64,000 nucleotides of DNA. Origin: Malacoraja senta. Taxonomy: Eukaryota. The DNA is taken from the NCBI GenBank assembly GCA_038087875.1, contig CM075995.1, positions 3,040,001-3,104,000 of the forward strand. The letters are read 5' to 3'. A model generated the notes under the pieces. That model did no database searches. It was not told the DNA's origin and was given only the letters and a program-made list of their open reading frames with translations. Numbering within the stretch: the first letter of the stretch is position 1; each line of letters starts with the position of its first letter. The position numbers and the translations under genes were made by a program. Of this stretch, positions 7,521-61,117 are shown one piece after another.

Positions 7521-8094
7521 TATCCATGTACCTGCCTAACTGTTCCTTAAATGTTGGGATCGTCCCAACCTCAACTACCTCCTCCGACAGCTTAATCCCA
7601 CCAACCTTTGTGTGAAAACGTTACCCCCTCACCTGTATCCACCTATCACCCCCCCCCCCCCCTCATCTGTATCCACCAATCACCCCCTTCACCTGTATCC
7701 ACCTCATCTGTATCCACCAATCACCCCCCTCACCGGTGTCCACCTATCACTCACCAGGCTTTGCACCACTTCCACCTCTTTCCCAGCTTTCTCCCCCCTA
7801 CTCCATCAATCTGAAGAAGGGACCCGCCCCGAAACGACGTCTGTCCATTCCCTCCACAGATGCTGCATGAGTGGCTGAGTTCCTCCAGCACTCCGTGCTT
7901 TGCTCAAGAATTGCAGCACCTACAGTTCCTTGCCTCCGCTTCACTGACTGTGCTTCCAATGCACTCTCACCGAGACACTGCTCCGGCACTGAGATGCTGC
8001 CGGTCATGTCGAATATTTCCCCCTCCCCTTCCTCGTTCCCCCCCCCCTGTTCCCCCCTCCCCCATCCCCCTCGTGCCTTTGTTTATTGCCACGT

Positions 8095-8415
8095 TAAGTT
8101 TAGTTTAATTTAGTTTAGAGAAGCAGCGTGGAAACAGGCCCTTCGGCCCACAGAGTCCGTGCCTACCAGAGATCCCTGCACACTCACATTACCCTAAACA
8201 CACCAGCGATAATTTACATTTATACCAAGCCAATTAACCTACAAACCTGTACGTCTTTGGAGTGTGAGAGGAAACCGGAGATCCCAAAGAAAACCCATGC
8301 AGGTTATGGGGAGAACGTACAAATACCGTACAGACAAGCACCCGTAGTCGGGGATCGAACTCGGGTCCCTGGCACTGTAAGGCAGCAACTCTACCGCTGT
8401 GCCACAGTGCCGCCC
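8095..8415 (-). mobile_element. V-SINE (HE1-like) copy
   Basis: Complete head, V-domain and (AAACT)n tail. Confidence 0.85.
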
Positions 8416-9014
8416 TGAACTAAAATAGTCTACACTAAAATAGTTGACTTTGGAAGAGGAAGGTTGAGGATCCACAAACCTGTTTTCATCGGCAGAGTCA
8501 AAAACTTAAAATACCTGGGCGTGCATATCTCTGAAGATCTGTCCTGGACTCAGCACGTTGATGCAATCATAAAGAAAGCCCATCAACGCCTGTACTTCCT
8601 TAGAAGATTGAGGAGTTTTGGTTTGTCAACAACTACTCCCTTGGACTTCCACAGGTGTACAGTCGAGACCACATCGACCGATTTTCTTCTGGGTGCCCCG
8701 CTTTCCTCCCACATCTCAAAGACTCCTCCTTGGGATTTGTATTTTCCCCCTAGTATGTGAGGGGTGGGTGAGAAAGTGGGATAACATAGATGTAGTGTGA
8801 ATGGGTGAACACAGAATGCTGGAGTAACGGGCCAGGCAGCATCTCTGGAGAGAAGGAATGGGTGACGTTTCGGATGGCCAAAACTAAACTAAACTGAACT
8901 AAACTAAACTGAACATCTGCAGGTCCTTCTTAAACATAAACTAAACTTAACCTACTCAAAAAATCTCAAGGTAATCCAGCATAGTATTATCAAAGAGTAT
9001 TTCACACCATACTA

Positions 9015-12057: not shown

Positions 12058-12134
12058 TTCAAGAACTCCGCCTCTGGATATGGACACCCCAAGCCAGTGC
12101 CGGTCCCAAGCCCAGACAAAGGAGGAAGGTTGGG
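12058..12134 (+). ncRNA. Twister ribozyme fold (P1-type with P3), partly decayed
   Basis: TTCAA(P1) GAA CTCC(P2) GCC [ctgg..ccag P3] G CCGG(P4) TCCCAAGC CCAG ACAAA GGAG(P2') GAAGG TTGGG(P1'); core matches the twister motif GCCGGUCCCAAGCCCGG. Confidence 0.75.
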
Positions 12135-18200: not shown

Positions 18201-18449
18201 CAACACCGAGTACAAAGTTGACCAGGGAGGGCCAGCACACCAGGAAGTGAATGGTAAAGGAGAAATAATGTTTGCAAAAACAATCAGTGGCAAAACACAA
18301 AGCGCTGGAAGACCACAACGGGTCAGGCAGCATCTGTGGAGGCAAATACACAGCCTCTACACAGGCTGTGTGGATAGATGACATTTGGGGTCGAGACCCA
18401 TCTACACACTAATTAGAGTAGGGTGGAGGGGGTGGAAGCTGGAAAGAAG

Positions 18450-18725
18450 ACTTTAGACTTTAGAGAAGCAGCGTGGAAACAGGTCCTTCTTCCCAATGAG
18501 TCCGCGCCGACCAGCGATCCCCGTACACTAGCACTATCCTACACACTAGGGACAATTTACAATTTTTACCTAAGTCAATTAACCTACAAACCTCTACGTC
18601 TTTGGAGTGTGGGAGGAAACCGGAGCACCCGGAGGAAACCCACACGGTCACGGGGAGAACGTACAAACTCCGTACAGACAGCACCCGTAGTCATGATCCA
18701 ATCCGAATCTTTGGAGCTGTAAGCA
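18450..18725 (-). mobile_element. V-SINE (HE1-like) copy, head truncated
   Basis: V-domain and tail on minus strand. Confidence 0.8.
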
Positions 18726-18997
18726 AGCTGTGCCCTACCACTCTGTGGAGGGTCAAAGCCTGGCAAGCAATTGAAGGATATAGGTAAAGGGGGTAGTTGA
18801 GTATCAGATTCTTGATTAGTACGGGTGTCAGAGGTTATGGGGAGAAGGCAGGAGAATGGGGTCAGCAGGGAGAGATAGATCAGTCATGATTGAATGGTGG
18901 AGTAGACTTGTTGGGCCGAATGGCCTAATTCTACTCCTATTCCTTGTGACCTAATGAGAGAGGTGGAGTAAGTGAGAGAGGCTAGAGATGAAAAGGA

Positions 18998-19052
18998 GAC
19001 CAGCTAGCTCAGTCGATAGAGCATGGGACTCTTAATCCCAGGGTCGTGGGTT
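18998..19052 (+). pseudogene. tRNA-Lys(CTT) 5' portion, truncated in the T-loop, retrocopied
   Basis: gaccagctagctcagtcgatagagcatgggactCTTaatcccagggtcgtgggtt matches vertebrate tRNA-Lys-CTT GCCCGGCTAGCTCAGTCGGTAGAGCATGGGACTCTTAATCCCAGGGTCGTGGGTTCG; anticodon at 19031-19033. Confidence 0.9.
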
Positions 19053-19642
19053 GAGTATAGAAGTTGGGAAGTCATGTTGCAGTTGTATTAGACATTGGTG
19101 AGTGCATTTAGAATATTATGTTCAGTTCTGGGCACCATGTTATAGGAAAGATATTGTCAAGCTTGAAAGGGTTCAGAAAATATTTACGAGGATGTTGCCA
19201 GGACTAGAGGGTGTGAGCTATAGGGAGAGGATGAGTAGGCTGGGTCTCTATTCCAGGGAGCGTAGGAGGATGAGGGGAGATCTTATAGAGGTAGACAAAA
19301 TCATGAGAGGAATAGATGGGGTAGATGTACAGAGTCTTTTACCCAGAGTAGGGGAATCAAGGACCAGAGGACATACATTCAAGGTGAAGGGGAAAAGATT
19401 TAATAGGAACCCGAGGGGTAACTTTTTCACACAGAGGGTGGTGGGTGTATGGAATAAGCTGCCAGAGGAGCTAGTTGAGGCTGGGATTATCCCATTGTTT
19501 ATGAAAGAGTTGGACAGGTACATGTATAGGACAGGTTTGGAGGGTTATGGACCAAGCGCAGGCAAGTGGGACTAGCGTATGTGGGCGAGTTGGGCCATAG
19601 GGCCTGTTTCCACACTGTATCACTGTATGACTCTACGACTCT
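19053..19642 (+). mobile_element. 5'-truncated CR1 fused directly to the tRNA-Lys head
   Basis: EYRSWEVMLQLY..HLEYYVQFWAP..FFTQRVVGVWN; tail gactctacgactct; TSD aggagac at 18994-19000 and 19643-19649. Confidence 0.9.
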
Positions 19643-20894
19643 AGGAGACAGGTAATGATAGAAGAGGATGTACAATGTAAAGCCAGTGACAGGAATATGG
19701 GCGGAAGGGGACAGTTGGGGGGTGGAAGGAGGGGCGATAAAAGGGAAGTGAAGGACTCAGGAATGGGGAATGGGGAATGAGCATTTGGAGGATGGGTTGG
19801 AGAAGGGTGTCTCGAGGAGCAGCAGGGTGGGAGATGGTGGTGGACAGGTATGTGCATCAGGGTGGAAGTGGAGAGGGGGGGTCACTCAGTGGAGCACATA
19901 ATGAGCAGCAAGATAGAGGGCTGGTACCTCCACAGCTATTTAAGTGGACATATAATATCCTTGCAATCATATGGTTGCATATTTTCTCCAGAGATGCTGC
20001 CTGACCACGATGAGTTACTCCAGTTTTTTCTCTGTCTTCGGTGTAAACCATACATCTACAGTTTCTCCCCCTACGCGCAGTGATCATGGTATATGATGAT
20101 CACCATTTTGCAAAAAAGGAAGGAGCCTAAAGTGATCATTCCAGCCAAGTACAAAGCAGCATTGACCCCATTCCCATGTTCAGGATCTTGATGATGGTGG
20201 CTTCTTGAGTAAGGACCCAGAGAATCATTGCATCTCCGGAATAAAGGAATACGTCAACTATTCCTTTTCTCCAGAGATGCTGCCTGACCCCCCCCTGAGT
20301 TACTCCACCATTTCGTGCCTATCTTTGGTGTAAACCAGCTTCTGCAGTTCCTTCCTGCACCTCCAGAGAATGGTTGATAGACACAAAAAGCTAGATCGAC
20401 TTAGCGAATCTGGCAGCAACTCCGGAGAAAAGGAAGAGGTGATGTTTCGGGTCGCGAGACCCTTCTTCAGTTAGTGCTCACAATTCTACCACATGGGTTT
20501 ATACAGCGCTTGCGACAGGGGAAAAGATTAAAATGGAAAGGAAACATAATTGTGGTTCATTCAATTTTGCTTTTATTTCCCTTCTCCCTCAGGGTGAAAT
20601 CTTATAGTTAGTTTTGTTTTAAATCCCTTGGTTGACAAGATTTACCCGAATTAGAAAGCACCGCTTTAAGGCGTAGGGGGTAAAGAGACGTGTGGGGCAA
20701 CTTTTTTTTACACAGAGGGTGGTGGGTGCTTGGAACGGCGCTGCCAGAGGTGGTGGTGGAAGCAGATACAATAGTGGTATTTAAGGGGCTTTTGGATAGA
20801 TACATGGACATGCAGGGAATGGAGGGAATATGGACCAAGTGCAGATTAAGTTTAAGAGCATCATGTTAGGAAAGATAGAAACACAGGAACAAAA

Positions 20895-28062: not shown

Positions 28063-29476
28063 TCTATATTACTAAAAGTCTGATCTTGACCATTTCCTGT
28101 TGTTCTGTTGATGGATTTAGAAAAAACGCTGCCACTTAAGGCTGTGATTTTTGGCCATCTTACTCAGAGTCCCCCTCCGCTGCGCAGGAGAAGAAGATGT
28201 TTCCCATCGATGAAAAATAAAAGAGTTATTAATGTTTACAAAACGTTGAGATTCTCTCGCCTGAAGGCCACACCCCTTCCGGAGGGACTATAAAACCCAG
28301 AAGCGTTGAGTGCCCCAGTCAGTCTCTGCAAGATGGGGGAGCGAGAGGGTCACGTCTCTCAGTCTGAGCTGTGAATAACACTGAACACATGTCTACTAAA
28401 CTGTGAATGGTTTTACTGACCTGTCAGCGCCCTTAATGTGGTTTGAAAATGTAGTTTGGAAATGCTAAAGCTGTGTTGCCTTTGGTTTGGAAATGCTAAA
28501 GCTGTGTTGCCTTTGGTTTGGAAATGCTAAAGCTGTGTTGCCTTTGGTTTGGAAATGCTAAAGCTGTGTTGCCTTTGGTTTGGAAATGCTAAAGCTGTGT
28601 TGCCTTTGGTTTGGAAATGCTAAAGCTGTGTTGCCTAATTAAAGTTGCCTTGTCAAATTAAAGTTGCCTTGTCGAATTAAAGTTGCCTTGCCTAATTAAA
28701 GTTGCCTTGCCTAATTAAAGTTGCCTTGCCTTCTATATAATTAAAAGTCTAATCTTGACCACTTCCTGTTTGCGCTTTATATTGATTTTAGAAAAAATGA
28801 TACCACATACAGCTGTGATTTTTGGCCATCATACTCAGAGTCCCTCTCCGCTCATCAAGTGCTGAGGATTCTTCCCATCGATGAAAAATAAAAGTTATTA
28901 GTGTTTCAAAAATGTTGAGATTCTCTGTCCTGTCAATCACGCCATGAAGGCCGCGCCCCTTTTGGTGGGAGGCGAGAGGGACTATAAAACCCAGAAATGT
29001 AGGCGTGGCTCAGTCTCTGCAAGATGGAGTAGGGAGAGGTCACGACTCGCTGTCTTTAGTGGCCTTGCACCCTGCTTGAAATGGTATGAAACTGCACTTG
29101 TATCTAGTGGCCTTGCACCCTGCTTGAAGTGATAAGAAACTGCACTTGATTTTGGTGGCCCCGCACCCTGCTTGAAATGGAATTTCAAGGAATAGCCGTG
29201 AGTAAACTGCCAGCCCACCAGCCGTGAGTGAGTGAGCTGCCAGCACAACAGGCTTGAGTGACTGAACCGCCAGCCCAAGAATCCATTTGGCCCACAATAT
29301 CCATACTAGCCCTCCGGAAACCAGTCCCTTCAACCCACAACACCCATACTAGCGCTCCAGAAAGCCCCTCCCCCCCCGGGCCACAAATATTGGAATTGGT
29401 GGAGAGGTGGAATATTGTATTGGGGGACCAGCCCTCCCTTGAGAACATGGGACCCAACGGGTCCCACTTAGTCTAG
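28063..29476 (+). mobile_element. Non-autonomous Helitron with a duplicated 5' module
   Basis: A|TC start (tctatattactaaaagtc), second 5' start at ~28732, 3' hairpin tgggaccc-aac-gggtccca (29448-29466), then CTAG|T. Confidence 0.9.
28454..28730 (+). repeat. Internal minisatellites of Helitron 1 (31-bp and 19-bp units)
   Basis: tttggtttggaaatgctaaagctgtgttgcc about x6, then taattaaagttgccttgcc about x5. Confidence 0.9.
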
Positions 29477-29583
29477 TATATATATATAACTGTGATTATT
29501 ACTTTCACAGACATTCTCAGTATTGTGTAGACGCACACACACACACATGTACATGCACACACATACATTTGTATATATATATA

Positions 29584-31144
29584 CTAGACTAAGTGGGACC
29601 CGTTGGGTCCCAGCATCACACGGGACGGCTGGTCACCCAATGCAATATTCCACCTCTCCACCAATTCCAATATTGCTGGCCAGTGGGGGGAAGGGGGGGG
29701 GGAGGCTTTCTCTTGCGCTAGTATGGGTGTTGTGGGCCTAAGGTACTGTTTTCCAGAGGGCTAGTATAGACATTGTGGGCCGAATGGATTCTTGGGCTGG
29801 CAGCCAACTGTTGCAACGATTTTAAAAGCCAAGCCAAGGCCACAATTTGGCAGCAGCCACTCGACAACCAAAATCCATTTTGTGAACACAAACTTTTTAA
29901 AAGGCGAGGCAAACAATTGGGCAGCAGCCACCCGACAACCAAAATTCATTTTGTAAACAAACTTTTTAAAAAGGCGAGGCAAACTATTGGGCTGCAGCCA
30001 CCTGACAACCAAAATTCATTTTGTGAAAACAAACTTTTAAAAAAGACGTGGAAAACAATTGGGCAGCAGACACCCGACAACCAAAATTCATTTTGTAAAC
30101 ACAAACTTTTTAAAAAGGCGAGGCAAACAATTGGGCAGCAGCCACCCGACAACCAAAATTCATTTTGTGAACACAAACTTTTTAAAAAGGCGAGGCAAAC
30201 AATTGGGCAGCATCCACCCGACAACCAAAATTCATTTTGTGAACAGAAACTTTTTTAAAAAAGGCGAGGCAAACAATTGGGCAGCAGCCACCCGACAACC
30301 AAAATTCATTTTGTGAACACAAACTTTTTAAAAAGGCGAGGCAAACAATTGGGCAGCAGCCACCTGACAACCAAAATTCATTTTGGGAACACAAACTTTT
30401 TAAAAAGGCGAGGCAAACAATTGGGCAGCAGCCACCTGACAACCAAAATTCATTTTGTGAACACAAACTTTAAAAAAAAAGGCGTGGCAAACAATTGGGC
30501 AGCAGCCACCTGACAACCAAAATTCATTTTGTGAACACAAACTTTTTAAAAGGCGAGGCAAACAATTTGGCAGCAGCCACCTGACAACCAAAATTCATTT
30601 AGTGAACACAAACTTTAAAAAAAGGCGAGGCAAACAATTGGGCAGCAGCCACCTGATAACCAAAATTCATTTTGTGAACACAAACTTTTTAAAAAGGCGA
30701 GGCAAACAATTGGGCAGCAGCCACCTGACAACCAAAATTCATTTTGTGAACACAAACTTTTTAAAAGGCGAGGCAAACAATTTGGCAACAGCCGCATCGA
30801 GGGGATTCACCGTGGAGTAGGCGTTCAGTGTTATTCACAGCTCAGAGAGCCGTGACCCTCTCGCTTCCTGGGTCTGGCAGAGACTGAGTAAGGCATTACA
30901 CTTCCGGGTTTTATAGTCCCTCCCCCTGCCGCCAGCGGGGGCACCAGAGAGAATGACGATTAAAAAAACCCCATTAATTTCTCTCTGATTTTTCATCGAT
31001 GGGAAAAATCCTCCAGTCCCGGAAGGCGGAGGGGGGCTCTGAGCGAGGTGGCCAAAAATGACGGCCGTAGGTGGCGGTTTTCTCTCGGAAATCGCAGCAC
31101 CAGTGAGTCAAAAGCGGTCAAGATCAGACTTTTAGTAATATAGA
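29584..31144 (-). mobile_element. Non-autonomous Helitron, related family, opposite strand
   Basis: Minus-strand A|TCTATATTACTAAAAGTC start at 31144; same hairpin and CTAG|T end at 29584. Confidence 0.9.
29849..30790. repeat. 72-bp minisatellite, about 13 copies, inside Helitron 2
   Basis: Unit ggcagcagccacccgacaaccaaaattcattttgtgaacacaaactttttaaaaaggcgaggcaaacaattg. Confidence 0.95.
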
Positions 31145-32764: not shown

Positions 32765-33197
32765 TTAGACAGGTACATAGATAGGACAGTTTTACAGGGA
32801 TATGGACCAAACACAGGCAGGTGGGACGAGTGTAGATGGTGATTGTGAGTAGGCATGGGAAGTTGGGCTGAAGGACCTGTTTCCATGCTGTATGACTCTA
32901 TGACACTAGGTATTAGTTAATGTTAAACAGCTTATTTAAAGCTGGTTTGCCGTGGTGATTTTTCACATAGCAGGCAGGACGTTACATGACAAGACGTTGT
33001 TTGATCATGTGTATAGAAAATGTTTTCCAATGCTGGAGAGAACTTCACCTTTGGACGTGGATTGTAAGTGATTGCCAGGGCTATGAACAGTGATGACTCT
33101 CTTAAATTATCTGTTGCTAGGAGTCCAGAGCAGCAAAACATATATGAGAACTTTGCTTAGAGTGGTGAAGCATCGGAATAGGATCTTCAGCCCCTTC

Positions 33198-36100
33198 TCA
33201 AGTTCAAGTGAGTTTATTGTCATGTGTCATCGGACAATGAAATTCTTGCTTTGCTTCAGCACAACAGAACATAGAAGGCATTGACTACAAAACAGATCAG
33301 TGTGTCCATATATCATTATATAAATATATACACACATGAATAAATAAACTGATAAAGTGCAAATAACACATAATGGGCTATTAATGTTCATAGTTTTGTC
33401 CGAGCCAAGTTTAATAGCCTGATGGCTGTGGGGAAGTAGATATTCCTGAACCTGTTCATTGCAGTCTTCAGGCTCCTGTACCTTCTACCTGAAGGTAGCA
33501 GGGAGATGAGTGTGTGGCCAGGATGGTGTGGGTCCTTGATGATACTGCCAGCCTTTTTGAGGCAGCGACTGCGATAGATCCCCTTGATGGAAGGGAGGTT
33601 AGAGCCGATGATGGACTGGACAGTGTTTACTACTCTTTGTAGTCTTTTCCTCTCCAGGGCGCTCAAGTTGCCGAACCAAGCCACGATGCAACCGGTCAGC
33701 ATGCTCTCTACTGTGCACGTGTAGAAGTTAGAGAGAGTCCTCCTTGACAAACCGACTCTCCGTAATCTTCTCAGGAAGTAGAGGCGCTGATGTGCTTTCT
33801 TAATAGTAGCATCAGTGTTCTCGGACCAGGAAAGATCTTCAGAGATGTGCACGCCCAGGAATTTAAAGCTCTTGACCCTTTCAACCATCGACCCATTGAT
33901 ATAAACGGGACTGTGGGTCCCCAACCTACTCCTTCCAAAGTCCACAATCAGTTCCTTGGTTTTGCTGGTGTTGAGGGCCAGGTTATTGTGCTGGCACCAT
34001 ATGGACAGTTGCTCGATCTCTCTTCTGTATTCTGACTTATCCCCATCAGTGATACGACCCACAACAGTGGTGTCGTCAGCGAACTTGATGATCGAGTTCG
34101 CACTATGGCTGGCTATGCAGTCATGATTATAGAGTGAGTACAGCAGGGGACTGAGCACGCAGCCTTGAGGTGCTCCCGTGCTGATTGTTATCGAGGCTGA
34201 CACATTTCCACCAATACGAACAGACTGTGGTCTGAGAATGAGGAAGCCGAGGATCCAATTGCAGAGGGATGCGCAGAGACCCAGTTCTGCGAGTTTGGTA
34301 ACCAGCTTGGAGGGGATGATTGTATTAAATGCCGAGCTGTAATCGATGAATAACAGCCTGGCATATGAGTTTTTGTTGTCCAAGTGGTCCAGAGCGGAGT
34401 GGAGGGCCAGCGAGATCGCATCCACCATTGATCTGTTGTGGCGGTAAGCGAACTGCAGTGGGTCCAGGTTCTTGTCGAGGTAGGAGTTGATGTGCACCAT
34501 AATCAACCTCTCAAAGCACTTCATCACCACAGGCGTTAGTGCCACAGGTCGATAGTCATTGAGGCACGTCACCTTACTCTTCTTGGGCACTGGTATAATT
34601 GCTGCCCTTTTGAAGCAGGTGGGAACCTCAGACCTCAGAAGTGAGAGGTTGAAAATGTCCGTAAAACTCCAGCCAGTTGGTCGCACAGGTTTTTATAACG
34701 CGACCAGGTATACCATCAGGTCCAGGCGCTTTTCGAGGGTTCACTCCTCTGAAGGATTTCCTGACGTCGGCCTCTGTGACTGAGACTGAAATACCATCAC
34801 AGCGAATGGGAGCTCGGGAAGGCACATCGGTGTTCTCCCTATCAAAGCGTGCGTAAAACTCATTGAGCTCATCAGGGAGTGATGTTTCGCCGACATTCGA
34901 GCTGCCTCCCGATTTTACCTTGTAGGAGGTGATTGCATTCAGGCCCTGCCACAGCTGCCGAACATCTGTCTCTTCCTCCAGTTTGGAGCAGAAGTCCCTT
35001 TTGGCCTTTTTGATGGCCTTACCAAGGTCGCATCTGGACTTCTTGTAGACCACTGTATCATCAGACATGAATGACCGGTGTCTGGTCTTCAGAAGAGTGC
35101 GGATCTCAAAGTTCATCCAAGGTTTGGGAAATACTCGGAAGGTTTTTGTAGGGATGCAGTCCTCCACACATTTCTTAATGAAGTCTGTAACGACTGTGGC
35201 GTATTCGTTCAAGTCCGTTGCCGAGTCCTTGAACATTGCCCAGTCTACAGACTCCAAACAGTCCTGGAGTTGTTCCTCTGCCCCCCCCCCCACTCCCGAC
35301 CAGTTCTGCACTGTCCTCACCTCTGGGGGTGCGCTCTTTAATTGCTGCCTGTAGGCAGGAAGAAGCAGCACCGTGGTATGGTCAGATTTACCGAAGTGAG
35401 GGCGAGGGATAGAGCGGTAGGCATTCTTGATGGTGGTGCAGCAGTGGTAGAGGGTGTTTGGTCCTCTGGTGCAGCAGGAGACATGTTGGTGGAAGTTAGG
35501 GAGTGATTTCTTTAGGTTTGCCTTATTGAAGTCCCCAGCAATGGTGGTAAATGCCTCGGGGTAAGACGTCTGGTGTTTGTTGACCACAGCGTGCAGCTCC
35601 TCCAGTGCCAGACGGACGTCTGCCTGCGGTGGGATGTAGACCGCGGTCAGGATGATGAAGGTGAATTCCCTCGGAAAGTAGAAGGGACGACACTTCACCG
35701 CCAGATGTTCGAGGTGTGGAGAGCACGAGTTGGACAGGACTGCCACGTCTGAGCACCACGCAGAGTTGACCATGAGGCAGACGCCTCTTCCTCTCCCTTT
35801 CCCAGATGCCAGTGTACGGTCTATACGGTGGATGGAGAACCCTTCAGGCTGGACCGCTGAGTCTGGGGAGCTGAGGGTGAGCCATGTCTCGGTAAAACAG
35901 AACACAGAGCATTCCCTCAGCTCCCTTTGATAAAGCAGTCTTGCCCTTAAGTCCTCCACTTTATTTTCAAGGGACTGTACGTTGGCCAGTAGGATAGTAG
36001 GGAGAGGGGGCCGAAGTCCCCTGCGCTTCAGTCTGACCTGAAGTCCTGCCCGCCGGCCACGTTTCCGGACACAATGGAGGCTTCCCCTTTGTTTCCAGGC

Positions 36101-36522
36101 GCTGAGTCTACTGTACCTGCTGTTTCTGCGGACCTGCGCTGGAACAGGGATTCCTTTCAAGACGGCAGCTCCAGCTCCGTAACGAACGGGGGTACATTCA
36201 AAGTCGGCAGCTCCAGCTTCATTGTTCCTGGAGGATCCAGCTCGTCAGCTCTGGAGGTCATCCCGTGGTTTCAAGGTGCCGTACCTGGGTTCCTCAGTCG
36301 GGTCGGGTGTTTCACAGCCAGCATGGGAAAGTTTAAAGTCCGGGGCTCCCGCAGCTGCGGGAGATGGTGAAATTGCGAGAGCCTTGAGGTGCTCAAGCAG
36401 CTTGTCTGAAATGGCACCGTTTTCTGCCGTTTTCCTGATCCAGGTGAGTTGATTGAAGTTGTATCTAAGTCTTTTAGGGTCTGGTCCTCCACAAACGTCG
36501 CCGCAGGCAGGCGCCATCTTGA
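33198..36522 (-). mobile_element. Near full-length Rex1/Babar non-LTR retrotransposon
   Basis: 5' aagatggcg start; AP endonuclease (LANVQSL, FTETWL, AGDFN, SDH) then RT ([24 protein letters not shown]); 3'UTR ending gacaataaactcacttgaacttgag. Confidence 0.95.
33388..36160 (-). pseudogene. Rex1/Babar endonuclease-reverse transcriptase ORF, frameshifted near 34680
   Basis: Overlapping ORFs 34628-36160 (APE domain) and 33388-34686 (RT domain). Confidence 0.9.
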
Positions 36523-36737
36523 GAGGGTACAAGATACTTTATCTATGCTGAGCAAGATAGCCTACCTAAGCTCGTCTCATTTGCCCATATACAGCTACAC
36601 CTTTCCTATCCAAGCACCTGACCAAATGTCTTTCACATGTTGTTATTGTATCTGCCTCAACTACCTTCTCTGGCAGCTCAATCCATACGCTCACCACCCT
36701 CTGTGTGAAAAAGTTGCACCTTAGGGTACTGTTCATC

Positions 36738-36975
36738 GGGCGCCACAGTAATGCAGCAGCGGAGCTGATCTTTCACAGCGCCAGTGACCCGGGCTCGATC
36801 CTGACTGCGGGTGTTGTCTGTGCGGACTATGTACGTTCTCCCCATGACCACATGGGTTTTCTCCGGGTGCTCCGGTTTCCTTCCACAGTCCAAAGATCTG
36901 CAGGTTTGTAGGTTGATTGGAATCTGTATATTGACCCTGGTGTGCAGGATGTGAAAGTGGAATAACATGGAACTA
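36738..36975 (+). mobile_element. V-SINE variant
   Basis: gacccgggctcgatcctgact, V-domain gggttttctccgggtgctccggtttcc. Confidence 0.8.
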
Positions 36976-37478
36976 GTCATAGAGTCGTACAGTGTGGAAA
37001 CAGGCCCTTCGGCCCAAGTTGCGCAGACCAACCAACATGCCCCATCTACACTAGTCCCACCTGTCTAAGTTTGGTCCCTCTAAACCTGTTCTATCCATGT
37101 ACCTGTCTAAATGTTTTGTAAGCGTTGTGATAGTACCAGCCTCAACTACCTCCTCTGGCAGCTTGTTCCATACACCTACGACTCTTTATATAAAATAAGT
37201 TACCTCTTGGTTTCTTATTATGTCTTTTCCCCTTTGCCTTAAACCAATGTCCTCTGGTTTTCAACTCCCATACTCCCTGCATTTACCAAATCCTCTGACG
37301 TTCCGGAGAGAATGTTCCAAGTCTATCCAACCTTGCCTTGTAGCTGAGACACAGTAATCCAGTCAGCGTTCAGGCAAACCTCCTCTGCACCCTCTCCAAA
37401 GCCTCCATCTACATCTGTCTTGTAATGGGGTCGGCAGAATGCCCACAATACTTCCAATATAGCCTAACTGAAGTCTTA

Positions 37479-37990
37479 AATGCCTGTCTCACGAGTCTGC
37501 GGTCATTGGCGGCGAAACAGGAACTGTCTACCGCTCCTGGGCCGCCAGAGACCGCAGGCTCAGTCAAACGCACAATTCCGGGGCCGTGCAGCGTTGTTCC
37601 CAACACCGCACGGTGCTAAAAAAAACCCAACACTGTCCAAAAATATGTTCCTACTGCACAGCCGCCGCCAGTGAGGCACGAGTGTGGCACGGTCACCGCC
37701 ACAGCCGCCGCCAGTGAGGCATGAGTGCGGCACGGTCACCGCCACAGCCGCCGCCAATGAGGCACGAGCGCCGTGAGCCGAACCTGCACCGCCACAGCCG
37801 GCGACAGTGAGGTACGTGTGCGGCACGGCCGCCGCCACAGCCCCGCGATCCGAAAGACGTCATCAGCCGAAACCGCAAGCTCGTGGAACCGGACGTACTT
37901 GGCCCCCGCACAGCATCCGTGCGGCGCTCTCGTGGTTGCCGTGCGGTCCCCTCTTCCGGCGAACGACCGCAAACCCGTGGGACAGAGCTT
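37479..37990. mobile_element. GC-rich PIF/Harbinger-type MITE in a CR1 fragment (duplicate at 58771-59302)
   Basis: TTA TSD; TIR ctgtctcacgagtctgcggtc / gaccgcaaacccgtgggacag; internal gccgccgccagtgaggcacgag repeats. Confidence 0.85.
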
Positions 37991-38754
37991 TTACAGAGCT
38001 TCTTCATGGCTTCCGATCATATTGTTATTTTATCGTAATGCAATCATATTGTAATTTTACAACAATTTGGTGTCATTGACAGGATCTAACCAACATGTGG
38101 AAGGGAAAAGATCAGACTTCACGAGAAGCAGAGGGAGAGGGAGAAAATATAAATATTGGCTGCGCCACTGCGTCTTGTTGCCCAGTTATTGATACAAAAT
38201 TGAGTTGCTTGAAGAGTGTAATTGGAATATAGTAAACACTGGGACGAAGCTACTCAATGCATTTACGGATTGCTTCATGGAAGTGGACCTTTCGGTAATA
38301 AAGTCAGAGAAACATTCAGCATGAAACAGGCCCATTAGTCCAACTAGTCCATACCAACCAAGATGCCCCACCCCCACCCCACTAAGTTAGTCCCATTTGT
38401 ATGCATTTGGCCCATATCCCTCTAAAGCTTTCCTATCCAAGTACCTGTCCAAATATCTTTTAAATGTTGTTATTGTACCTGAAATAATTGCCTATTCTGG
38501 CAGCTCTTTCTAGATACCTATCACTCTCAGTGTGGAAAGTAATCATGAGGAAGGTGTAACTCAAGTTGCTTGGCTATTACTTTCTGCAGTTCAGGGGTTA
38601 TGAAAAGAAAAAGATGCATTAAAAGCTGAAATTCAGGTATGGGTGGAGGAAAAGAAAATATTCAGCGGCATATTTCCACTGTTGCTTTAGCAGAGACAGA
38701 ACAATCTGTCCATAGAGTGCAGAAAAAGGTGGAGGATAAAATGTCTAACTCGGC

Positions 38755-38971
38755 TTCAGAGTTCAGAGATACAGCGCGGAAATAGGCTCTTCGGCCCACC
38801 AAGACTGCAACAACTAACAATCATCCCATACACCAACACTATCGTACACAATACGGACAGTTTGCAATTTTATTGAAGCCAATTAACCTATAAACCTGTA
38901 CGTCTTTGGAGTGTGGGAGGAAACCGGAGCACCTGGAGAAAACCCGAAGGAGAACGTACAAACTCTGTACA
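38755..38971 (-). mobile_element. V-SINE 3' half (its 5' half is at 44678-44758)
   Basis: Breaks at caaactctgtaca and resumes as ctctgtacagacggcacccgtag at 44678. Confidence 0.85.
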
Positions 38972-39592
38972 TATAACCATATAACCATATAACCATATAA
39001 CAATTACAGCATGGAAACAGGCCATCTCGACCCTTCAAGTCCATGCCGAACACTATTTCTCCCCTAGTCCCATATACCCATCCAATCTATTTTTAAATTA
39101 TAAAATCGAACCTGCCTCCACCACTTCCACTGGAGGCTCATTCCACACAGCTACCACTCTCTGAGTAAAGAAGTTCCCCCTAATGTTACCCCTAAACTTC
39201 TGTCCCTTAATTCTCAAGTCATGTCCTCTTGTTTGAATCTTCCCTACTCTCAGTGGGAAAAGCTTATCCACGTCAACTCTGTCTATCCCTCTCATCATTT
39301 TAAAGACCTCTATCAAGTCCCCCCTTAACCTTCTGCGCTCCAAAGAATAAAGACCTAACTTGTTCAGCCTTTCTCTGTAACTTAGTTGCTGAAACCCAGG
39401 CAACATTCTAGTAAATCTCCTCTGTACTCTCTCTATTTTGTTGACATCCTTCCTATAATTAGGCGACCAAAATTGTACTCCATACTCCAGAATTGGCCTC
39501 ACCAATGCCATGTACAATTTTAACATTACATCCCAACTTCTATATTCAATGCTCTGATTTATAAAGGCCAGCACACCAAAAGCTTTCTTTAT
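38972..39592 (-). mobile_element. 5'-truncated CR1, same subfamily as 40421-44677
   Basis: ORF 39098-39595 KKAFGVLAFINQSIEYRSWD..; (GGTTATAT)n tail. Confidence 0.95.
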
Positions 39593-39594
39593 CA

Positions 39595-39644
39595 TGCGCA
39601 GCGCAGACAGGAAGTGGTCAAGATGAGACTTTTAGTTATATAGA
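39595..39644 (-). mobile_element. Helitron 5'-end stub
   Basis: Minus strand tctatataactaaaagtctcatcttgaccacttcctgt matches the Helitron starts at 28063, 28732 and 31144. Confidence 0.8.
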
Positions 39645-39649
39645 TATAC

Positions 39650-39692
39650 AGATGCACATATACACAAACTCAAAAACAAATGATAGTAGTGC

Positions 39693-39756
<64 letters not shown>

Positions 39757-40265
39757 GTCTATTGTAGTTTAGAGCTTATTTGAGGTTGTAATGTTTAATA
39801 GCCTGAAGGCTGCAGGGAAGAAGCTGTTCCTGAACCTGGACGTTACAGTCTTCAGGCTCCTGTGCCTTTTTCCCGATGGGAGTGGTGAAATGTGTGTGTG
39901 GCCAGGATGGTGTGGGTCTCTGATGATGTTGGCTGCCTTTTTGAGGCAACGACTCCGATAAATCCCTTCGATGATGCGGAGGTCAGAGCCGGTGATGGAC
40001 TGGGCAGTGTTCACAACTTTTTCCAGTCCTGGACATACAAGTTGCCGAACCAGGCCATGATATGCTCTCTATGGTACTCCTGTAGAATGTTCAAGAGAAT
40101 CCTCTCTGACATACCGAATCTCCGTAATCTTCTCAGGAAGTAGAGGCGTTGATGTGCTTTATTTTTAATTGCATCAGTGTGCTGGGTCCAGGAAAGATCT
40201 TTGGAAATATGCACGCCCAGGAATTTGAAGTTTTTGACTCTCTCCACCCCGTTGATATAAACAGG
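39650..40265 (-). mobile_element. Rex1/Babar 3' fragment containing (TAA)n
   Basis: [30 protein letters not shown]. Confidence 0.9.
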
Positions 40266-40522
40266 ACAAAAACAGGATCATTACATAAAGCTACAGTTTA
40301 GTTTAGTTCAGATTATTGTCACGTGTAGCAAGGTACAGTGAAAAGCTTTTGTTGCCTGCTATCCAGTCTGCGGAAAGACAATGCATGATTACAATCAAGC
40401 CATGTATCATAGACACATGATATAACCATATAACCATTATAGCACGGAAACAGGCCATCTCGGCCCTTCAAGTCCATGCCGAACACTTTTTATATTTTTC
40501 CCTTCTTTCTTCTTACTTCCCC

Positions 40523-43330
40523 CTAGTCCCATCTACCTGCACTCAGACCATAACCCTCCATTCCTTTCCCATCCATATACCCATCCAATCTATTTTTAAA
40601 GGATAAAATCGAACCTGCCTCCACCACTTCCACTGGAAGCTCATTCCACACAGCTACCACTCTCTGAGTAAAGAAGTTCCCCCTAATGTTACCCCTAAAC
40701 TTCTGTCCCTTAATTCTCAAGTCATGTCCCCTTGTTTGAATCTTCCCTACTCTCAATGGGAAAAGCTTATCCACGTCAACTCTGTCTAACCCGCTCATCA
40801 TTTTAAAGACCTCTATCAAGTCCCCCCTTAACCTTCTGCGCTTCAAAGAATAAAGACCTAACTTGTTCAGCCTTTCTCTGTAACTTAGTTGCTGAAACCC
40901 AGGCAACATTCTAGTAAATCTCCTCTGTACTCTCTCTATTTTGTTGACATCCTTCCTATAATTAGGCGGCCAAAATTGTACTCCATACTCCAGAATTGGC
41001 CTCACCAATGCCTTGTACAATTTTAACATTACATCCCAACTTCTATATTCAATGCTCTGATTTATAAAGGCCAGCACACCAAAAGCTTTCTTTACCACCC
41101 TATCTACATGAGATTCCACCTTCAGGGAACTATGCACAGTTATTCCTAGATCCCTCTGTTCAACTGCATTCCTCAATTCGCTACCATTTACCATGTACGT
41201 CCTATTTTGATTTGTCCTGCCAAGATGTAGCACCTCACATTTATCAGCATTAAACTCCATCTGCCATCTTTCAGCCCACTCTTCCAAATGGCCTAAATCT
41301 CTCTGTAGACTTTGAAAATCTACTTCATTATCCACAACACCACCTATCTTAGTATCATCTGCATACTTACTAATCCAATTTTCCACACCATCATCCAGAT
41401 CATTGATGTACATGACAAACAACAGTGGACCCAACACAGACCCCTGAGGCACCCCACTAGTCACCGGCCTCCAACCTGACAAACAGCCATCCACCATTAC
41501 TCTCTGGCATCTCCCATTCAGCCACTGTTGAATCCATCTTGCTACTCCACCATTAATACCCAACAATTTAATCTTCTTAACCAACCTTCCATGAAGAACC
41601 TTGTCAAAGGCCTTACTGAAGTCCATATAGACAACATCTACTGCTTTACCCTCATCAATTTCCCTAGTAACCTCTTCGAAAAATTCAAGAAGATTTGTCA
41701 AACATGACCTTCCAGGCACAAATCCATGTTGACTGTTCTTAATCAGACCCTGTTTATCCAGATGCTTATATATATTATCCCTAAGTATCCTTTCCATTAA
41801 TTTGCCCACCACTGACATCAAACTAACAGGTCTATAATTGCTAGGTTTACTCTTAGAACTCTTTTTAAACAATGGAACAACATGCGCAGTACGCCAATCC
41901 TCCGGCACTATTCCCATTTCTAATGACATTTGAAATATTTCTGTCATAGCCCCTGCTATTTCTACACAAACTTCCCTCAATGTCCTAGGGAATATCCTGT
42001 CAGGACCTGGAGACTTATCCATTTTCATATTTTTCAAAAGTGTCCACACTTCCTCTTCTTTGAATCTCATAGTTTCCATTGCTACTCTGCTCATTTCCCT
42101 TACCTCACATAATTAAATATCCTTCTCCTTGGTGAATACCAAAGAAAAGAAATTGTTCAATATCTCCCCCATCTCTTTTGGCTCTGCAGATAGCAGTCCA
42201 CCCTGACTCTCTAATGGACCAATTTTATTCCTTGTTATCCTTTTGCTATTAATATAGCTGTAGAAACCCTTTGGGTTTACTTTCACCTTACATGCCAAAG
42301 CAACCTCATATCTTCTTTTAGCTTTTCTAATTTCTTTCTTAAGATTCTTTTTACATTCTTTATACTCCTGCAGCACCTCATTTACTCCATGCTGCCTATA
42401 ATTATTGTAGATCTCTCTCTTTTTCCGAACCGTGTCCAATTTCCCGTGAAAACCATGGCTCTTTCCAATTTTTACTATTTCCTTTCAACCGAACAGGGAC
42501 ATAAAGATTCTGTACTCTTAAAATTTCACCTTTAAATGTCCTCCATTTCTCTTCTACATCCTTCCCATAAAACAACATGTCCCAATTCACTCCTTTTAAA
42601 TCCTTTCGCATCTCCTCAAAGTTAGCCAGTCAAAAATCTCAACCTTAGGTCGAGTTCTGACCCTCTCCATAATTATATTGAAACTAATGGTATTGTGATC
42701 AATGGACCCAAAGTGCTCCCCAACGCATACCTCAGCCACCTGCCCTGTCTCATTTCCTAACAGGAGGTCCAGCACTGCCCCTTCTCTTGTAGGTACCTCT
42801 ATGTATTGCTGCAAAAAACTATCCTGCCCACATTTTACAAACTCCAAACCATCCAGCCCTTTTACAGAATGTGTTTCCCAGTCTATGTGTGGAAAATTGA
42901 AATCTCCCACAATCACTACCTTGTGCTTACTACTAATATCTGCTATCTCCTTACATATTTGCTCTTCCAATTCTCGCTCTCCATTAGGCGGTCTATAATA
43001 CAACCTATTAGTGTTGCTACCCCTTTCCCATTTCTCAGTTCCACCCAAATAGCCTCCCTAGACGAGCCCTCTAATCTATCCTGCCAAAGCACTGCTGTAA
43101 TATCTTCCTTGACAAGCAATGCAACACCCCCACCTCTTGCCCCTCCAATTCTATCACCCCTGAAGCAACGAAATCCTGGAATATTTAGTTTCCACTCACA
43201 GCCCTCCTGCAACCATGTTTCACTGATCGCCACAACATCATACTTCCAGGTGTCAATCCTGGCTCTAAGCTCATCCACCTCTCTTACAGTGCTCCTAGCA
43301 TTTAAATATACACATTTAAGAAACCCACCA
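40523..43330 (-). pseudogene. CR1 ORF2 (APE endonuclease + RT); frameshifts and a stop in the N-terminal half, 523-aa RT part open
   Basis: YLNARS, ISETWL, VGDFNFP, DHN; RT: QHGF, DFSKAFDKV, GVPQGSVLGP, KYADD. Confidence 0.95.
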
Positions 43331-43463: not shown

Positions 43464-44391
43464 CTAGTTTAAAGTCTCCCCAGTTGCCTTTGCAAATCTC
43501 CCCGCCAGGATATTGGTCCCCCTCGGGTTCAAGTGCAACCCGTCCTTTTTGTACAGGTCACACCTTCCCCAAAAGAGGTCCCAATGATCCAGAAACTGGA
43601 ATCCCTGCCCACTGCACCAGTCCCTCAGCCACGCATTTATCCTCCACCTCATTCCATTCCTACTCTCACTGTCTCGTGGCACAGGCAGTAATCCTGAGAT
43701 TGTTATTTTTTTGGTCCTTCTCCTTAACTCTCCTCCCATCTCCCTAAATTCTCCTTTCAGGACCTCTTCTCTCTTTCTACCTATGTCATTGGTACCTATA
43801 TGTACCATGACCTCAGGCTCCTCTCCCTCCGATTTCAGGATATCTTGGACGCGTTCAGACACCTCCCTGACCCTGGCACCAGGGAGGCAAACTACCATCC
43901 GGGTCTCCTGACTGCATCCACAGAATCGCCTATCTGACCCCCTAACCATAGAGTCCCCTATTACTATTGCCCTCCTCTTCTTTTCCCTACCCTTCTGAGC
44001 AACAGGGCCGGTCTCTGTGCCGGAGGCCCGGCCGCTGTCGCTACCCGCAGGAAGGCTGTCCCCCCCAACAGTACTCAAACATGAGTACTTATTTTCAAGG
44101 TGTACAGCCACCGGGGGTACTCACTAGTCCTTGCCTCTGCCCCTTGCCCTTCCTAACCGTGACCCACTTGTCCGCCTCCCGTGGTCTTGGAGTGACCACC
44201 TCCCTATAACTCCTTTCTATAACCTCCTCACTCTCCCTGATCAGACAGAGGTCATCGAGCTGTTGCTCCAGGTTCCTAACACGGTCCCTTAGGAGCCCCA
44301 TCTGGACACAGATGTGGACGTCTGGAGGGGTATCAGACTCCATGACCTCCCACATCTGACATCCAGAACAGTAAACTGCCCTGGCCCTCAT
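43464..44391 (-). pseudogene. CR1 ORF1: Cys-rich N-terminus, coiled coil and SGNH/GDSL esterase; frameshift near 44100
   Basis: CSGCQMWE; VIGDSMVR, VHIGTND, DGLHLN esterase blocks. Confidence 0.9.
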
Positions 44392-54239: not shown

Positions 54240-54439
54240 NNNNNNNNNNNNNNNNNNNNNNNNNNNNNNNNNNNNNNNNNNNNNNNNNNNNNNNNNNNNN
54301 NNNNNNNNNNNNNNNNNNNNNNNNNNNNNNNNNNNNNNNNNNNNNNNNNNNNNNNNNNNNNNNNNNNNNNNNNNNNNNNNNNNNNNNNNNNNNNNNNNNN
54401 NNNNNNNNNNNNNNNNNNNNNNNNNNNNNNNNNNNNNNN
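54240..54439. other. Assembly gap (200 N)
   Basis: Run of N. Confidence 1.
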
Positions 54440-57400
54440 GGAGTCCAGAGCAGCAAAACATATATGAGAACTTTGCTTAGAGTGTGAAGCATCGAAATAG
54501 GATTCTTCAAGCCCCTTCTCAATTTCAAGTGAGTTTATTGTCATGTGTCATAGGACAATTTAAATTCTTGCTTTGCTTCAGCAAACAGAACATAGAAGGC
54601 ATTGACTACAAAACAGATCAGTGTGTCCATATATCATTATATAAATATATACACACATGAATAAATAAACTGATCAAGTGCAAATAACACATAATGGGCT
54701 ATTAATGTTCATAGTTAGTCCAAGCCAAGTTAATAGCCTGATGGCTGTGGGGAAGTAGCTATTCCTGAACCTGGTCGTTGCAGTCTTCAGGCTCCTGTAC
54801 CTTCTACCTGAAGGTAGCAGGGAGATGAGTGTGTGGCCAGATGGTGTGGGTCCTTGATGATACTGCCAGCCTTTTTGAGGCAGCGACTGCAATAGATCCC
54901 CTCGATGGAAGGGAGGTCAGAGCCGATGATGGACTGGGCAGTGTTTACTACTCTTTGTAGACTTTTCCTCTCCAGGCGCTCAAGATGCCGAACCAAGCCA
55001 CGATGCAACCGGGTCAGCATGCTCTCTACTGTGCACCTGTAGAAGTTAGAGAGAGTCCTCCTGGACAAACCGACTCTCCGTAATCTTCTCAGGAAGTAGA
55101 GGCGCTGATGTGCTTTCTTAATAGTAGCATCACGTGTTCTCGGACCAGGAAAGATCTTCAGAGATGTGCACGCCCAGGAAATATTAAAAGCTCTTGACCC
55201 TTTCAACCATCGACCCATTGATATAAACGGGACGGTGGGTCCTCAACCTACTCCTTCCAAAGTCTGCAATCAGTTCCTTGGTTTTGCTGGTGTTGAGGGC
55301 CAGGTTATTGTGCTGGCACCATATGGACAGTTGCTCGATCTCTCTTCTGTACTCTGACTTATCCCCATCAGTGATACGTCCCACCAACAGTGGTGTCGTC
55401 AGCACTATGTCCGGCTACGCAGTCATGAGTATAGAGTGAGTACAGCAGGGGCTGAGCACGCAGCCTTGAGGTGCTCCCGTGCTGATTGTTATCAAGGCTG
55501 ACATATTTCCACCAATACGAACAGACTGTGGTCTGAGAGTGAGGAAGTCGAGGATCCAATTGCAGAGGGATGCGCAGAGACCCAGTTCTGCGAGTTTGGT
55601 AACCAGCTTGGGAGGGGATGATTGTATAAATGCCAAGCTGTAATCGATGAATAACAGCCTGGCATATGAGTTTTTGTTGTCCAAGTGTCCAGAACGGAGT
55701 GGAGGGCCAGCGAGATCGCATCCACCGTTGATATGTTGTGGCGGTAAGCGAACTGCAGTGGGTCCAGGTTTTTGTCGAGGTAGGTGTTGATTTGCACTAT
55801 GATCAACCTCTCAAGCACTTCATCACCACAGGCGTTAGTGCCACAGGTCGATAGTCATTGAGGCACGTCACCTTGCTCTTCTTGGGCACTGGTATGATTG
55901 ATGCCTTTTGAAGCAGGTTGGGAACCTCAGACCTCAGAAGTGAGAGGTTGAAATGTCCGTAAAAACTCCAGCCAGTTGGTCGAACAGGTTTTAGAACACG
56001 ACCAGGTATACCATCAGGTCCAGGCACTTTTCGAGGGTTCACTCCTCTGAAGGATTTCCTGACGTCGGCCTCTGTGACTGAGACTAAACATACCATCACA
56101 GCGAATGGGAGCTCAGGAAAGGCACATCGGTGTTCTCCCTATCAAAAGCGTGCGTAAAACTCATTGAGCTCATCAGGGAGTGATGTTTCGCCGACATTCA
56201 AGCTGCCTCCTGATTTTGCCTTGTAGGAGGCGATTGCATTCTGGCCCCGCCACAGCTGCCGAACATCTGTCTCATCCTCCAGTTTGGAGCAGGTCCCTTT
56301 TGGCCTTTTTGATGGCCTTACCAGGGTCATATCTGGACTTCTTGTAGACCACTGTATCATCAGACATGAATGCCCAGTGTCTGGTCTTCAGAAGAGTGCG
56401 GATATCAAAGTTCATCCAAGTTTCTGATTGGGAAACACTCGGAAGGTTTTTGTAGGGATGCAGTCCTCCACACATTCTTCTTAATGAAGTCTGTAAACGA
56501 CTGTGGCATATTCGTTCAAGTCTGTTGCCGAGTCCTTGAACATTGCCCAGTCTACAGACTCCAAACAGTCATGTAGTTGTTCCTCTGCCCCACCCCCCCC
56601 CCCACCCCCGACCAGCTCTGCACTGTCCTCACCTCTGGGGGTGCGCTCTTTAATTGCTGCCTGTAGGCAGGAAGAAGCAGCACCGTGGTATGGTCGGATT
56701 TACCGAAGTGAGGCGGAGGGATAGAGCGATAGGCATCCTTGATGGTGGTGTAGCAGTGATCGAGGTGTTTGGTCCTCTGGTGCAGCTAGGAGACATGTTG
56801 GTGGAAGTTAGGGAGTGATTTCTTTAGGTTTGCCTTATTGAAGTCCCCAGCAATGGTGGTAAATGCCTCGGGGTAAGACGTCTGGTGTTTGTTGACCACA
56901 GCGTGCAGCTCCTCCAGTGCCAGACGGACGTCTGCCTGGTGTGGGATGTAGGCCGCGGTCAGGATGACGAAGGTGAATTCCCTCGGAAAGTAGAAGGGAC
57001 GACACTTCACCGCCAGATGTTCGAGGTGTGGAGAGCACGAGTTGGACAGGACTGCCACGTCTGAGCACCACGCAGTTGACCATGGCAGGCAACGCCCCCT
57101 CCTCTCCCTTTCCCAGATGCCAGTGTACGGTCTATACGGTGGATGGGAGAAGCCCTTCAGGCTGGACCGCTGAGTCTGGGGAGCTGAGGGTGAGCCATGT
57201 CTCGGTAAAACAGAACACAGAGCATTCCCTCAGCTCCCTTTGATAAAGCAGCCTTAAGTCCTCCACTTTATTTTCAAGGGACTATACGTTGGCCAGTAGG
57301 ATAGTAGGGAGAGGGGGCCGAAGTCCCCCGCGCTTCAGTCTGACCTGAAGTCCTGCCCACCGGCACGTTTCCGGACACAATGGAGCTTCCCTTTGTTTCC

Positions 57401-60400: not shown

Positions 60401-61038
60401 CCCTCCATTCCTTTCTCGTCCATATACCCATCCAATCTATTTTTAAATTATAAAATCGAACCTGCCTCCACCACTTCCACTGGAGGCTCATTCCACACAG
60501 CTACCACTCTCTGAGTAAAGAAGTTCCCCCTAATGTTACCCCTAAACTTCTGTCCCTTAATTCTCAAGTCATGTCCTCTTGTTTGAATCTTCCCTACTCT
60601 CAATGGGAAAAGCTTATCCACGTCAACTCTGTCTATCCCTCTCATCATTTTAAAGACCTCTATCAAGTCCCCCCTTAACCTTCTGCGCTCCAAAGAATAA
60701 AGACCTAACTTGTTCAGCCTTTCTCTGTAACTTAGTTGCTGAAACCCAGGCAACATTCTCGTAAATCTCCTCTGTACTCTCTCTATTTTGTTGACATCCT
60801 TCCTATAATTAGGCGACCAAAATTGTACTCCATACTCCAGAATTGGCCTCACCAATGCCTTGTACAATTTTAACATTACATCCCAACTTCTATACTCAAT
60901 GCTCTGATTTATAAAGGCCAGCACACCAAAACTTTCTTTATGCGCAGCGCAGACAGGAAGTGGTCAAGATGAGACTTTTAGTTATATAGATATACAGATG
61001 CACATATACACATACTCAAAAACAAATGATAGTAGTGC

Positions 61039-61117
<79 letters not shown>

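Follow-up and report, generated by a model that had tools for sequence, protein, structure and literature searches.

How does a SINE begin? Families in which a tRNA head sits on a CR1 tail are thought to start as a single chimera between a tRNA and a LINE, and this founder stage is mostly deduced from finished families. In Malacoraja senta, a stretch of 64,000 nucleotides of contig CM075995.1 (the whole of the DNA that was analysed, hereafter the window) holds a locus at which the greater part of a tRNA-Lys(CTT), in sense orientation, runs directly into the 3'-terminal 592 bp of a CR1 LINE. Did the two parts arrive together and, if they did, how were they joined, and could the product ever have moved again? 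The reading that we prefer, with a probability of roughly 0.6, is that of a single chimeric retrocopy: the CR1 RT would have left its own RNA for a mature tRNA, which it entered at the T-loop, and the product is predicted to have lacked mobility from the outset. To us the locus looks like a failed founder with two readable reasons for its failure; one locus proves little, the class of tRNA/LINE chimeras is already known, and this is a well-formed additional example of it. In the literature searched, which left most subscription papers and Repbase outside, we found no cartilaginous fish for which a single-locus tRNA/CR1 chimera is described. The features of the locus, in window coordinates, are the following.

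18958..18993 (no strand): left flank, purine-rich on the plus strand (0.86 over 18958-18999)
18994..19000 (+): 5' copy of the TSD, AGGAGAC, whose final three bases are aligned by Rfam to tRNA nt 1-3
18998..19052 (+): 5' three-quarters of a tRNA-Lys(CTT), from nt 1-4 to nt 53-55, with the D arm, the anticodon arm, the variable loop and the 5' strand of the T stem
19051..19052 (+): junction, a 2-nt overlap between tRNA nt 54-55 and native CR1 sequence
19051..19575 (+): C-terminal part of CR1 ORF2, from beyond the RT domain
19337-19340 (+): run of four T (T4) inside the CR1 part
19423..19427 (+): run of five T (T5), native to the CR1 family, a predicted Pol III terminator
19576..19642 (+): CR1 3' UTR, with a deletion, a hairpin and a tail of 8-bp units
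19643..19649 (+): 3' copy of the TSD, AGGAGAC, whose initial A also extends the tail unit
19650..19870 (no strand): right flank, purine-rich on the plus strand (0.75)

The two parts and their junction

The head is matched by the Rfam model RF00005 at 18998-19053 (+) with 28.8 bits, marginally below the gathering score of 29, the E value being 0.0055 for 5 kb and 0.07 for the whole window. All 4 pairs of its D stem and all 5 of its anticodon stem are intact, the invariant G19 is altered, and the putative Lys identity rests on the anticodon, CTT; we take the head to be close to vertebrate tRNA-Lys-CTT. When 18998 is counted as nt 1, the head ends at nt 53-55 (19050-19052), with T54 and T55 at 19051-19052. 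A B box requires C56 and the bases after it, and the one in the head stops after T55, everything from C56 onward being missing. ARAGORN found no complete tRNA at the locus, and the candidate reading of a whole tRNA gene was rejected on this negative result and on the missing partner of the T stem; that partner, the 3' part of the tRNA, was found neither in 19643-20000 nor in 18700-18997. The first-pass annotation, made from the letters alone, had likewise seen no tRNA 3' end beyond the CR1 tail, and its account of about 55 nt of tRNA-Lys-CTT, starting at the mature 5' end or at most 3 nt inside it and broken in the T-loop with damage to the B box, agrees with these results. Since the head begins at nt 1-4 with no visible leader, its template was presumably an RNA rather than a tRNA gene.

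The tail part would belong to a LINE of the CR1 clade, to judge from its ORF2 homology and from a tandem tail of 8-bp units instead of poly(A). It carries 175 codons of ORF2, in which one stop and one frameshift within the first ~17 codons are followed by 157 open codons up to the native stop. This piece matches at 69% the protein P0002, which has Exo_endo_phos and RVT_1 domains; its best named eukaryotic relative is a Leucoraja erinacea protein (78% over 73% of the query), ray and shark matches come next, and no Pfam family was found for the C-terminal piece. The 3' UTR shows a ~19-nt deletion relative to sister copies and a small 6-bp hairpin, the latter in common with the tail of a resident SINE, which is tRNA-headed and present in at least 14 copies in the window (e.g. 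at 8092-8417 and 18444-18731). There follow ~2.6 copies of the 8-bp unit, ending at 19642; the tail unit of amniote CR1 given in an excerpt of PMC5729268 differs from this unit by one base, and a poly-A tail is described as the mark of Zenon (PMC13343379, in part). The 3' UTR folds no better than its shuffled versions (z +1.09; 176 of 200 shuffles fold as well). A second CR1 subfamily, with 64% protein identity to the CR1 of the chimera, lies at 40523-42112 (-) and 43464-44120 (-), with 529 open codons that include RVT_1 and with a GDSL-esterase frame upstream of the RT frame, as canonical CR1s are also said to have in an excerpt of PMC13343379. Nested 3' pieces of this second subfamily, at 39.5 kb and 60.9 kb, have one common 5' junction.

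Where exactly do the tRNA and the CR1 meet? Homology to other CR1 copies of the window begins precisely at 19051 in five copies, four of which sit in a duplicated segment and are non-independent; the earlier claim of a tRNA joined to a 5'-truncated CR1 is thereby borne out. The native CR1 base preceding 19051 is an A within an Ile codon, and Ile is also present in the Leucoraja protein. Because of this upstream Ile codon, the exact overlap between tRNA and CR1 comes down to the two T bases at 19051-19052, and these in turn place the tRNA break after nt 53, 54 or 55. The longer microhomology TTGAG proposed in the first-pass annotation does not survive: five shared nucleotides would require a gap, and native CR1 accounts for all bases from 19051. 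An overlap of two bases often arises by chance and does not distinguish a template switch from RNA ligation or from a later deletion, although, taken together with a break in a loop, it slightly favours the switch.

One enclosing duplication

The tRNA piece and the CR1 piece very probably came in as one insertion. This reading is based on the 7-bp repeat that encloses both of them, on an inner junction without a duplication (the best match at the tRNA/CR1 border is 3 nt), on the absent tRNA 3' end and on flanks that are purine-rich on both sides. How much weight can a repeat of seven bases bear? AGGAGAC occurs seven times in the window, against 8.1 expected, and as a 7-mer alone it is not rare. 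A match of at least 7 at both ends, with 72 offset pairs permitted, arose by chance in 43 of 8000 random, 105 of 8000 purine-rich and 166 of 8000 shuffled partners (0.5-2.1%), null A having taken in a few draws from the locus itself, with slight inflation. The duplication is thus short and its significance moderate, and the previously claimed enclosure of the whole by aggagac, at 18994-19000 and 19643-19649, holds at that level of chance.

The flanks have purine fractions of 0.86 and 0.71-0.75, compared with 0.52 for the tRNA part, and a fraction of 0.80 is attained by 29 of the 9103 42-mers of the window; the left and right flanks are likely the same purine tract, split by the insertion. A search of the window for a paralogous empty site, run with one flank at a time, returned only low-complexity purine-rich matches. 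The ages of the two parts are compatible: the CR1 part differs from the majority of its sisters at 36 of 420 sites (8.6%, the sisters themselves ranging from 6.8 to 11.5%), and the tRNA head has one changed site among the 28 that can be checked (P = 0.29 at the CR1 rate, at low power).

Only one of six sister CR1 copies has a TSD of at least 6 bp, and as this one measures 6 bp, a TSD of 7 bp falls within the range. None of the six resident SINE copies that could be scored (two of eight were unscorable) has a TSD of that length, and the boundaries assigned to the sister CR1 and SINE copies may be off. Most elements of this CR1 machinery show no visible duplication.

Routes to the junction and their rivals

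In the reading that we prefer, the CR1 endonuclease would have nicked the purine-rich tract, and the tail would have primed the cDNA there. After ~590 nt of CR1 RNA, the end of the cDNA may have paired with tRNA nt 54-55 through the two bases that tRNA and CR1 share, at a site in the loop just 5' of A58. The RT would then have copied through to the 5' end of the tRNA, and the second strand would have been joined, with the 7-bp duplication left behind. No mobile RNA would be predicted from Pol III, given a B box without C56 onward and a T5 run ~215 nt before the tail. Given the later deletions in the CR1 part, the junction could itself be of secondary origin. As for the first-pass annotation, which had ascribed the structure to one insertion by template switching, the single insertion finds support in the sole enclosing repeat and the missing inner duplication, while the switch is not established, the two shared bases being indecisive.

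One close parallel is human. Among 21 human tRNA/L1 chimeras, 16 have the tRNA in antisense and five in sense, one of these with an LTR in between (PMC13174262 supplement 3); 20 of the 21 start at nt 4 or earlier, and none ends at nt 53-55 (PMC13174262). What they have in common with the present locus is a 5' tRNA fragment from nt 1-4, a truncated LINE and one TSD, at rare single loci (bioRxiv 10.1101/2025.02.02.635956, in part; PMC13174262); what differs is the LINE, L1 there and CR1 here, and the TSD, 9-19 bp there and 7 bp here. Measured against the human set, the locus is atypical in its sense orientation and in its break at nt 53-55. Two Tyr and one Arg make up the sense half-tRNA heads of the human chimeras, which stop at nt 35-38; the near-full-length human heads are all Glu (PMC13174262). 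The three half heads suggest ligation of 5' exons. The intron cut site of a tRNA lies around nt 35-38, and Tyr and Arg are intron-bearing isotypes. A second parallel is provided by U6, of which chimeras with L2 and RTE, with TSDs of 1-9 bp, and one uncertain U6/CR1 case in turkey are described in an excerpt of PMC4476161. There, too, a small RNA stands in sense before a truncated LINE, and the TSDs with L2-type tails are short (1-9 bp); the head of the present chimera differs in being a 3'-truncated tRNA.

A head that starts at the mature 5' end and lies in sense fits either a cDNA that switched onto a tRNA or an RNA that had been ligated, a dichotomy stated in part of the authors' response file of PMC13174262. 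Could the RNAs have been joined beforehand, with e.g. RtcB linking a tRNA cut in its T-loop (nt 1-54) to a CR1 RNA that had been cut as well, and the chimera then being retrotransposed whole? This route, with which the sense orientation is consistent, is in our view unlikely. The piece that it calls for, nt 1-54, is the one left upon release of the 22-nt tRF-3b, whose A58 at position 4 implies a start at nt 55 (PMC9021294, in part), to be compared with the break seen here after nt 53, 54 or 55, and three of the five sense human tRNA/L1 chimeras carry Tyr or Arg halves that stop at nt 35-38. In human U6/L1 chimeras, U6 is joined to L1 RNA by RtcB, and the authors suggest a like route for small RNAs cut by endonucleases; that ligation uses the natural cyclic phosphate of U6, however, and a mature tRNA is without one (PMC6789731, in part). 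Cyclic phosphates are moreover not established at the ends left by T-loop cleavage, the enzyme for which awaits identification in the excerpt of PMC9021294, and, as a weaker point, ligation would have no need of an overlap, yet two bases do overlap. Perhaps, instead, the chimera was born with a complete tRNA head, its B box intact, and with a longer CR1, and the present junction was cut out later by a deletion between the two shared bases. Deletions of 2 to ~35 nt are indeed frequent in the CR1 part of the chimera and in its sister copies, one of which has lost bases immediately before the CR1 position equivalent to the junction. This history is nonetheless improbable: it needs an extra event, it would presumably need an RT reading through m1A58 or a tRNA that was unmodified, and the T5 run would still terminate the Pol III transcript.

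A tailless tRNA retrocopy might also have been joined by an unrelated CR1 insertion beside or inside it, the 7-bp repeat then being due to chance or to one of the two events. Loop-truncated tailless tRNA copies are common according to part of PMC5322556, 62% of the 64-kb window is covered by repeats (as judged by self-comparison), and the lack of visible duplications at most sister CR1 copies makes the missing inner duplication weak evidence. A tailless copy, on the other hand, should have its 3'-terminal bases in common with its target (PMC5322556, in part), whereas the 7-mer is unlike the tRNA break; the CR1 would have had to land exactly between the end of the tRNA and the tRNA's own duplication; the tRNA 3' remainder was not found beyond the CR1 tail; and tailless copies are described as products of therian L1. 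We regard two events as quite unlikely. Tailless tRNA retropseudogenes as such (PMC5322556, in part) resemble the head in being 5'-complete tRNAs truncated in a loop and differ in that here a LINE tail follows and the duplication and the break lack complementarity; this identity was rejected, as 592 bp of CR1 intervene before the TSD and the best terminal match is 3 nt. Is the chimera, finally, a member of an undescribed SINE-like family of low copy number, in which a long CR1 tail follows a Lys head, akin to the tortoise Pol III/SINE? SINEs built from a tRNA-Lys head and a CR1 tail are known (a table row of PMC3747384), and SINEU families spread despite internal oligo-T (PMC4494074, in part). 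Set against this are the cut B box and the native internal T5, a head matched once in 64 kb, where the resident SINE has at least 14 copies, tRNA stems that are still perfect and a tail with 175 ORF2 codons, and we consider such a family very improbable.

Under switch and ligation alike, the RT avoids m1A58, a position at which some RTs stall (PMC9021294, in part). Might tRNA modification, then, be a bottleneck in the birth of SINEs? The idea, which we offer as a doubtful lead, is that a LINE RT takes a modified tRNA only from 5' of m1A58, most heads losing the B box. Its corollary, at the same low odds, is that whole promoters would come only from tRNAs low in m1A58 (Glu, Asp) or from unmodified precursors, and that only short T5-free CR1 tails would be fully transcribed. 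Glu and Asp tRNAs are reported to be low in m1A58 (PMC9021294, in part), and human tRNA/L1 heads pass nt 59 in three of five Glu cases versus none of 16 others (Fisher P = 0.0075, post hoc); with Asp added to Glu the count is three of six (P = 0.015), and among the eight heads that extend beyond nt 40/the anticodon loop P rises to 0.14, the test mixing orientations and taking its end points from RepeatMasker. Among finished families, PittSINE (Asp) would fit an m1A58 limit, and TguSINE1 (Ile) and the tortoise SINE (Lys) would not, unless they came from precursors. CR1-group elements make up 22-34% of shark and ray genomes (PMC13343379, in part), and elasmobranch tRNA/CR1 junctions could serve to separate switching from ligation and to test tRNA modification as a limit on the founding of SINEs.

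Mobility, SINE relatives and other features of the window

With its B box cut and a T5 run before its tail, the chimera is predicted to have been dead on arrival and never mobile. The first-pass annotation had come to the same expectation from the B box, overlooking the internal T5. This run is present in all six close CR1 copies, the chimera included; three copies further removed have 4, 7 and 1 T in its place; among 14 resident SINE copies, none has a T5 or longer and ten have a T4. Since the T5 is native, even a repaired promoter is predicted to yield RNA without the tail that the CR1 RT recognises. Pol III transcripts end at oligo-T, and SINEU families nevertheless spread by another route (PMC4494074, in part). 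A search of the 64 kb with the tRNA head, at up to three mismatches, returned one match only, and the chimera is probably a single copy.

Does the chimera qualify as a SINE at all? It shares its 3' tail with a LINE, as a SINE2 does, and it has neither a promoter with A and B boxes nor a terminator-free body. It does display a direct join, a LINE 3' end with its tail and a single enclosing TSD without an inner one. Two defining features of a SINE are thus absent, and the three named features of small-RNA/LINE chimeric retrocopies are present. The founder proposed for PittSINE in an excerpt of PMC5729268 is likewise a tRNA-CR1 chimera that arose by template switching and is flanked by a TSD. TguSINE1 and PittSINE (PMC5729268, in part) and the tortoise Pol III/SINE (PMC3747384, in part) all resemble the locus in carrying a tRNA head on a CR1 tail, the tortoise head being a tRNA-Lys as well. 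They differ from it in that they are multi-copy and have both promoter boxes, as opposed to a cut B box and one copy known here, and in that the tail here, in comparison with theirs as described in those excerpts, is 592 bp long, includes coding sequence and contains a T5.

The resident SINE has its 3' end in common with the CR1 family of the chimera, so that a tRNA-headed passenger is probably moved by this CR1 machinery. The SINE is distinguished from the chimera by another, diverged head in which the B box is complete, by a central body, by a short tail and by the lack of a T5. A derivation of the chimera's head from the resident SINE was rejected, as the head matches none of the SINE copies. 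We presume the resident SINE to be HE1-like, i.e. a V-SINE, a label based on a table row of PMC3747384 rather than on sequence comparison.

Several further features of the window were recorded. Two open frames of 434 and 538 codons at 33388-36244 (-), the first with RVT_1 and ALKBH8_N, represent a further non-LTR family. A segmental duplication of ~9.5 kb links 33120-42639 with 54440-64000 at 95.5-98.6% identity; its second copy, at 54440, abuts a gap of 200 N at 54240-54439 and may be an assembly duplicate. A long inverted repeat around a (TA)n tract at 29430-29630, which Rfam scores as plant miRNA hairpins, is probably a MITE-like element. A Twister-P1 ribozyme-like match at 12059-12133 (+) (58.5 bits, E 1.3e-10, below the gathering score of 67.2) is perhaps the 5' end of a decayed retroelement.
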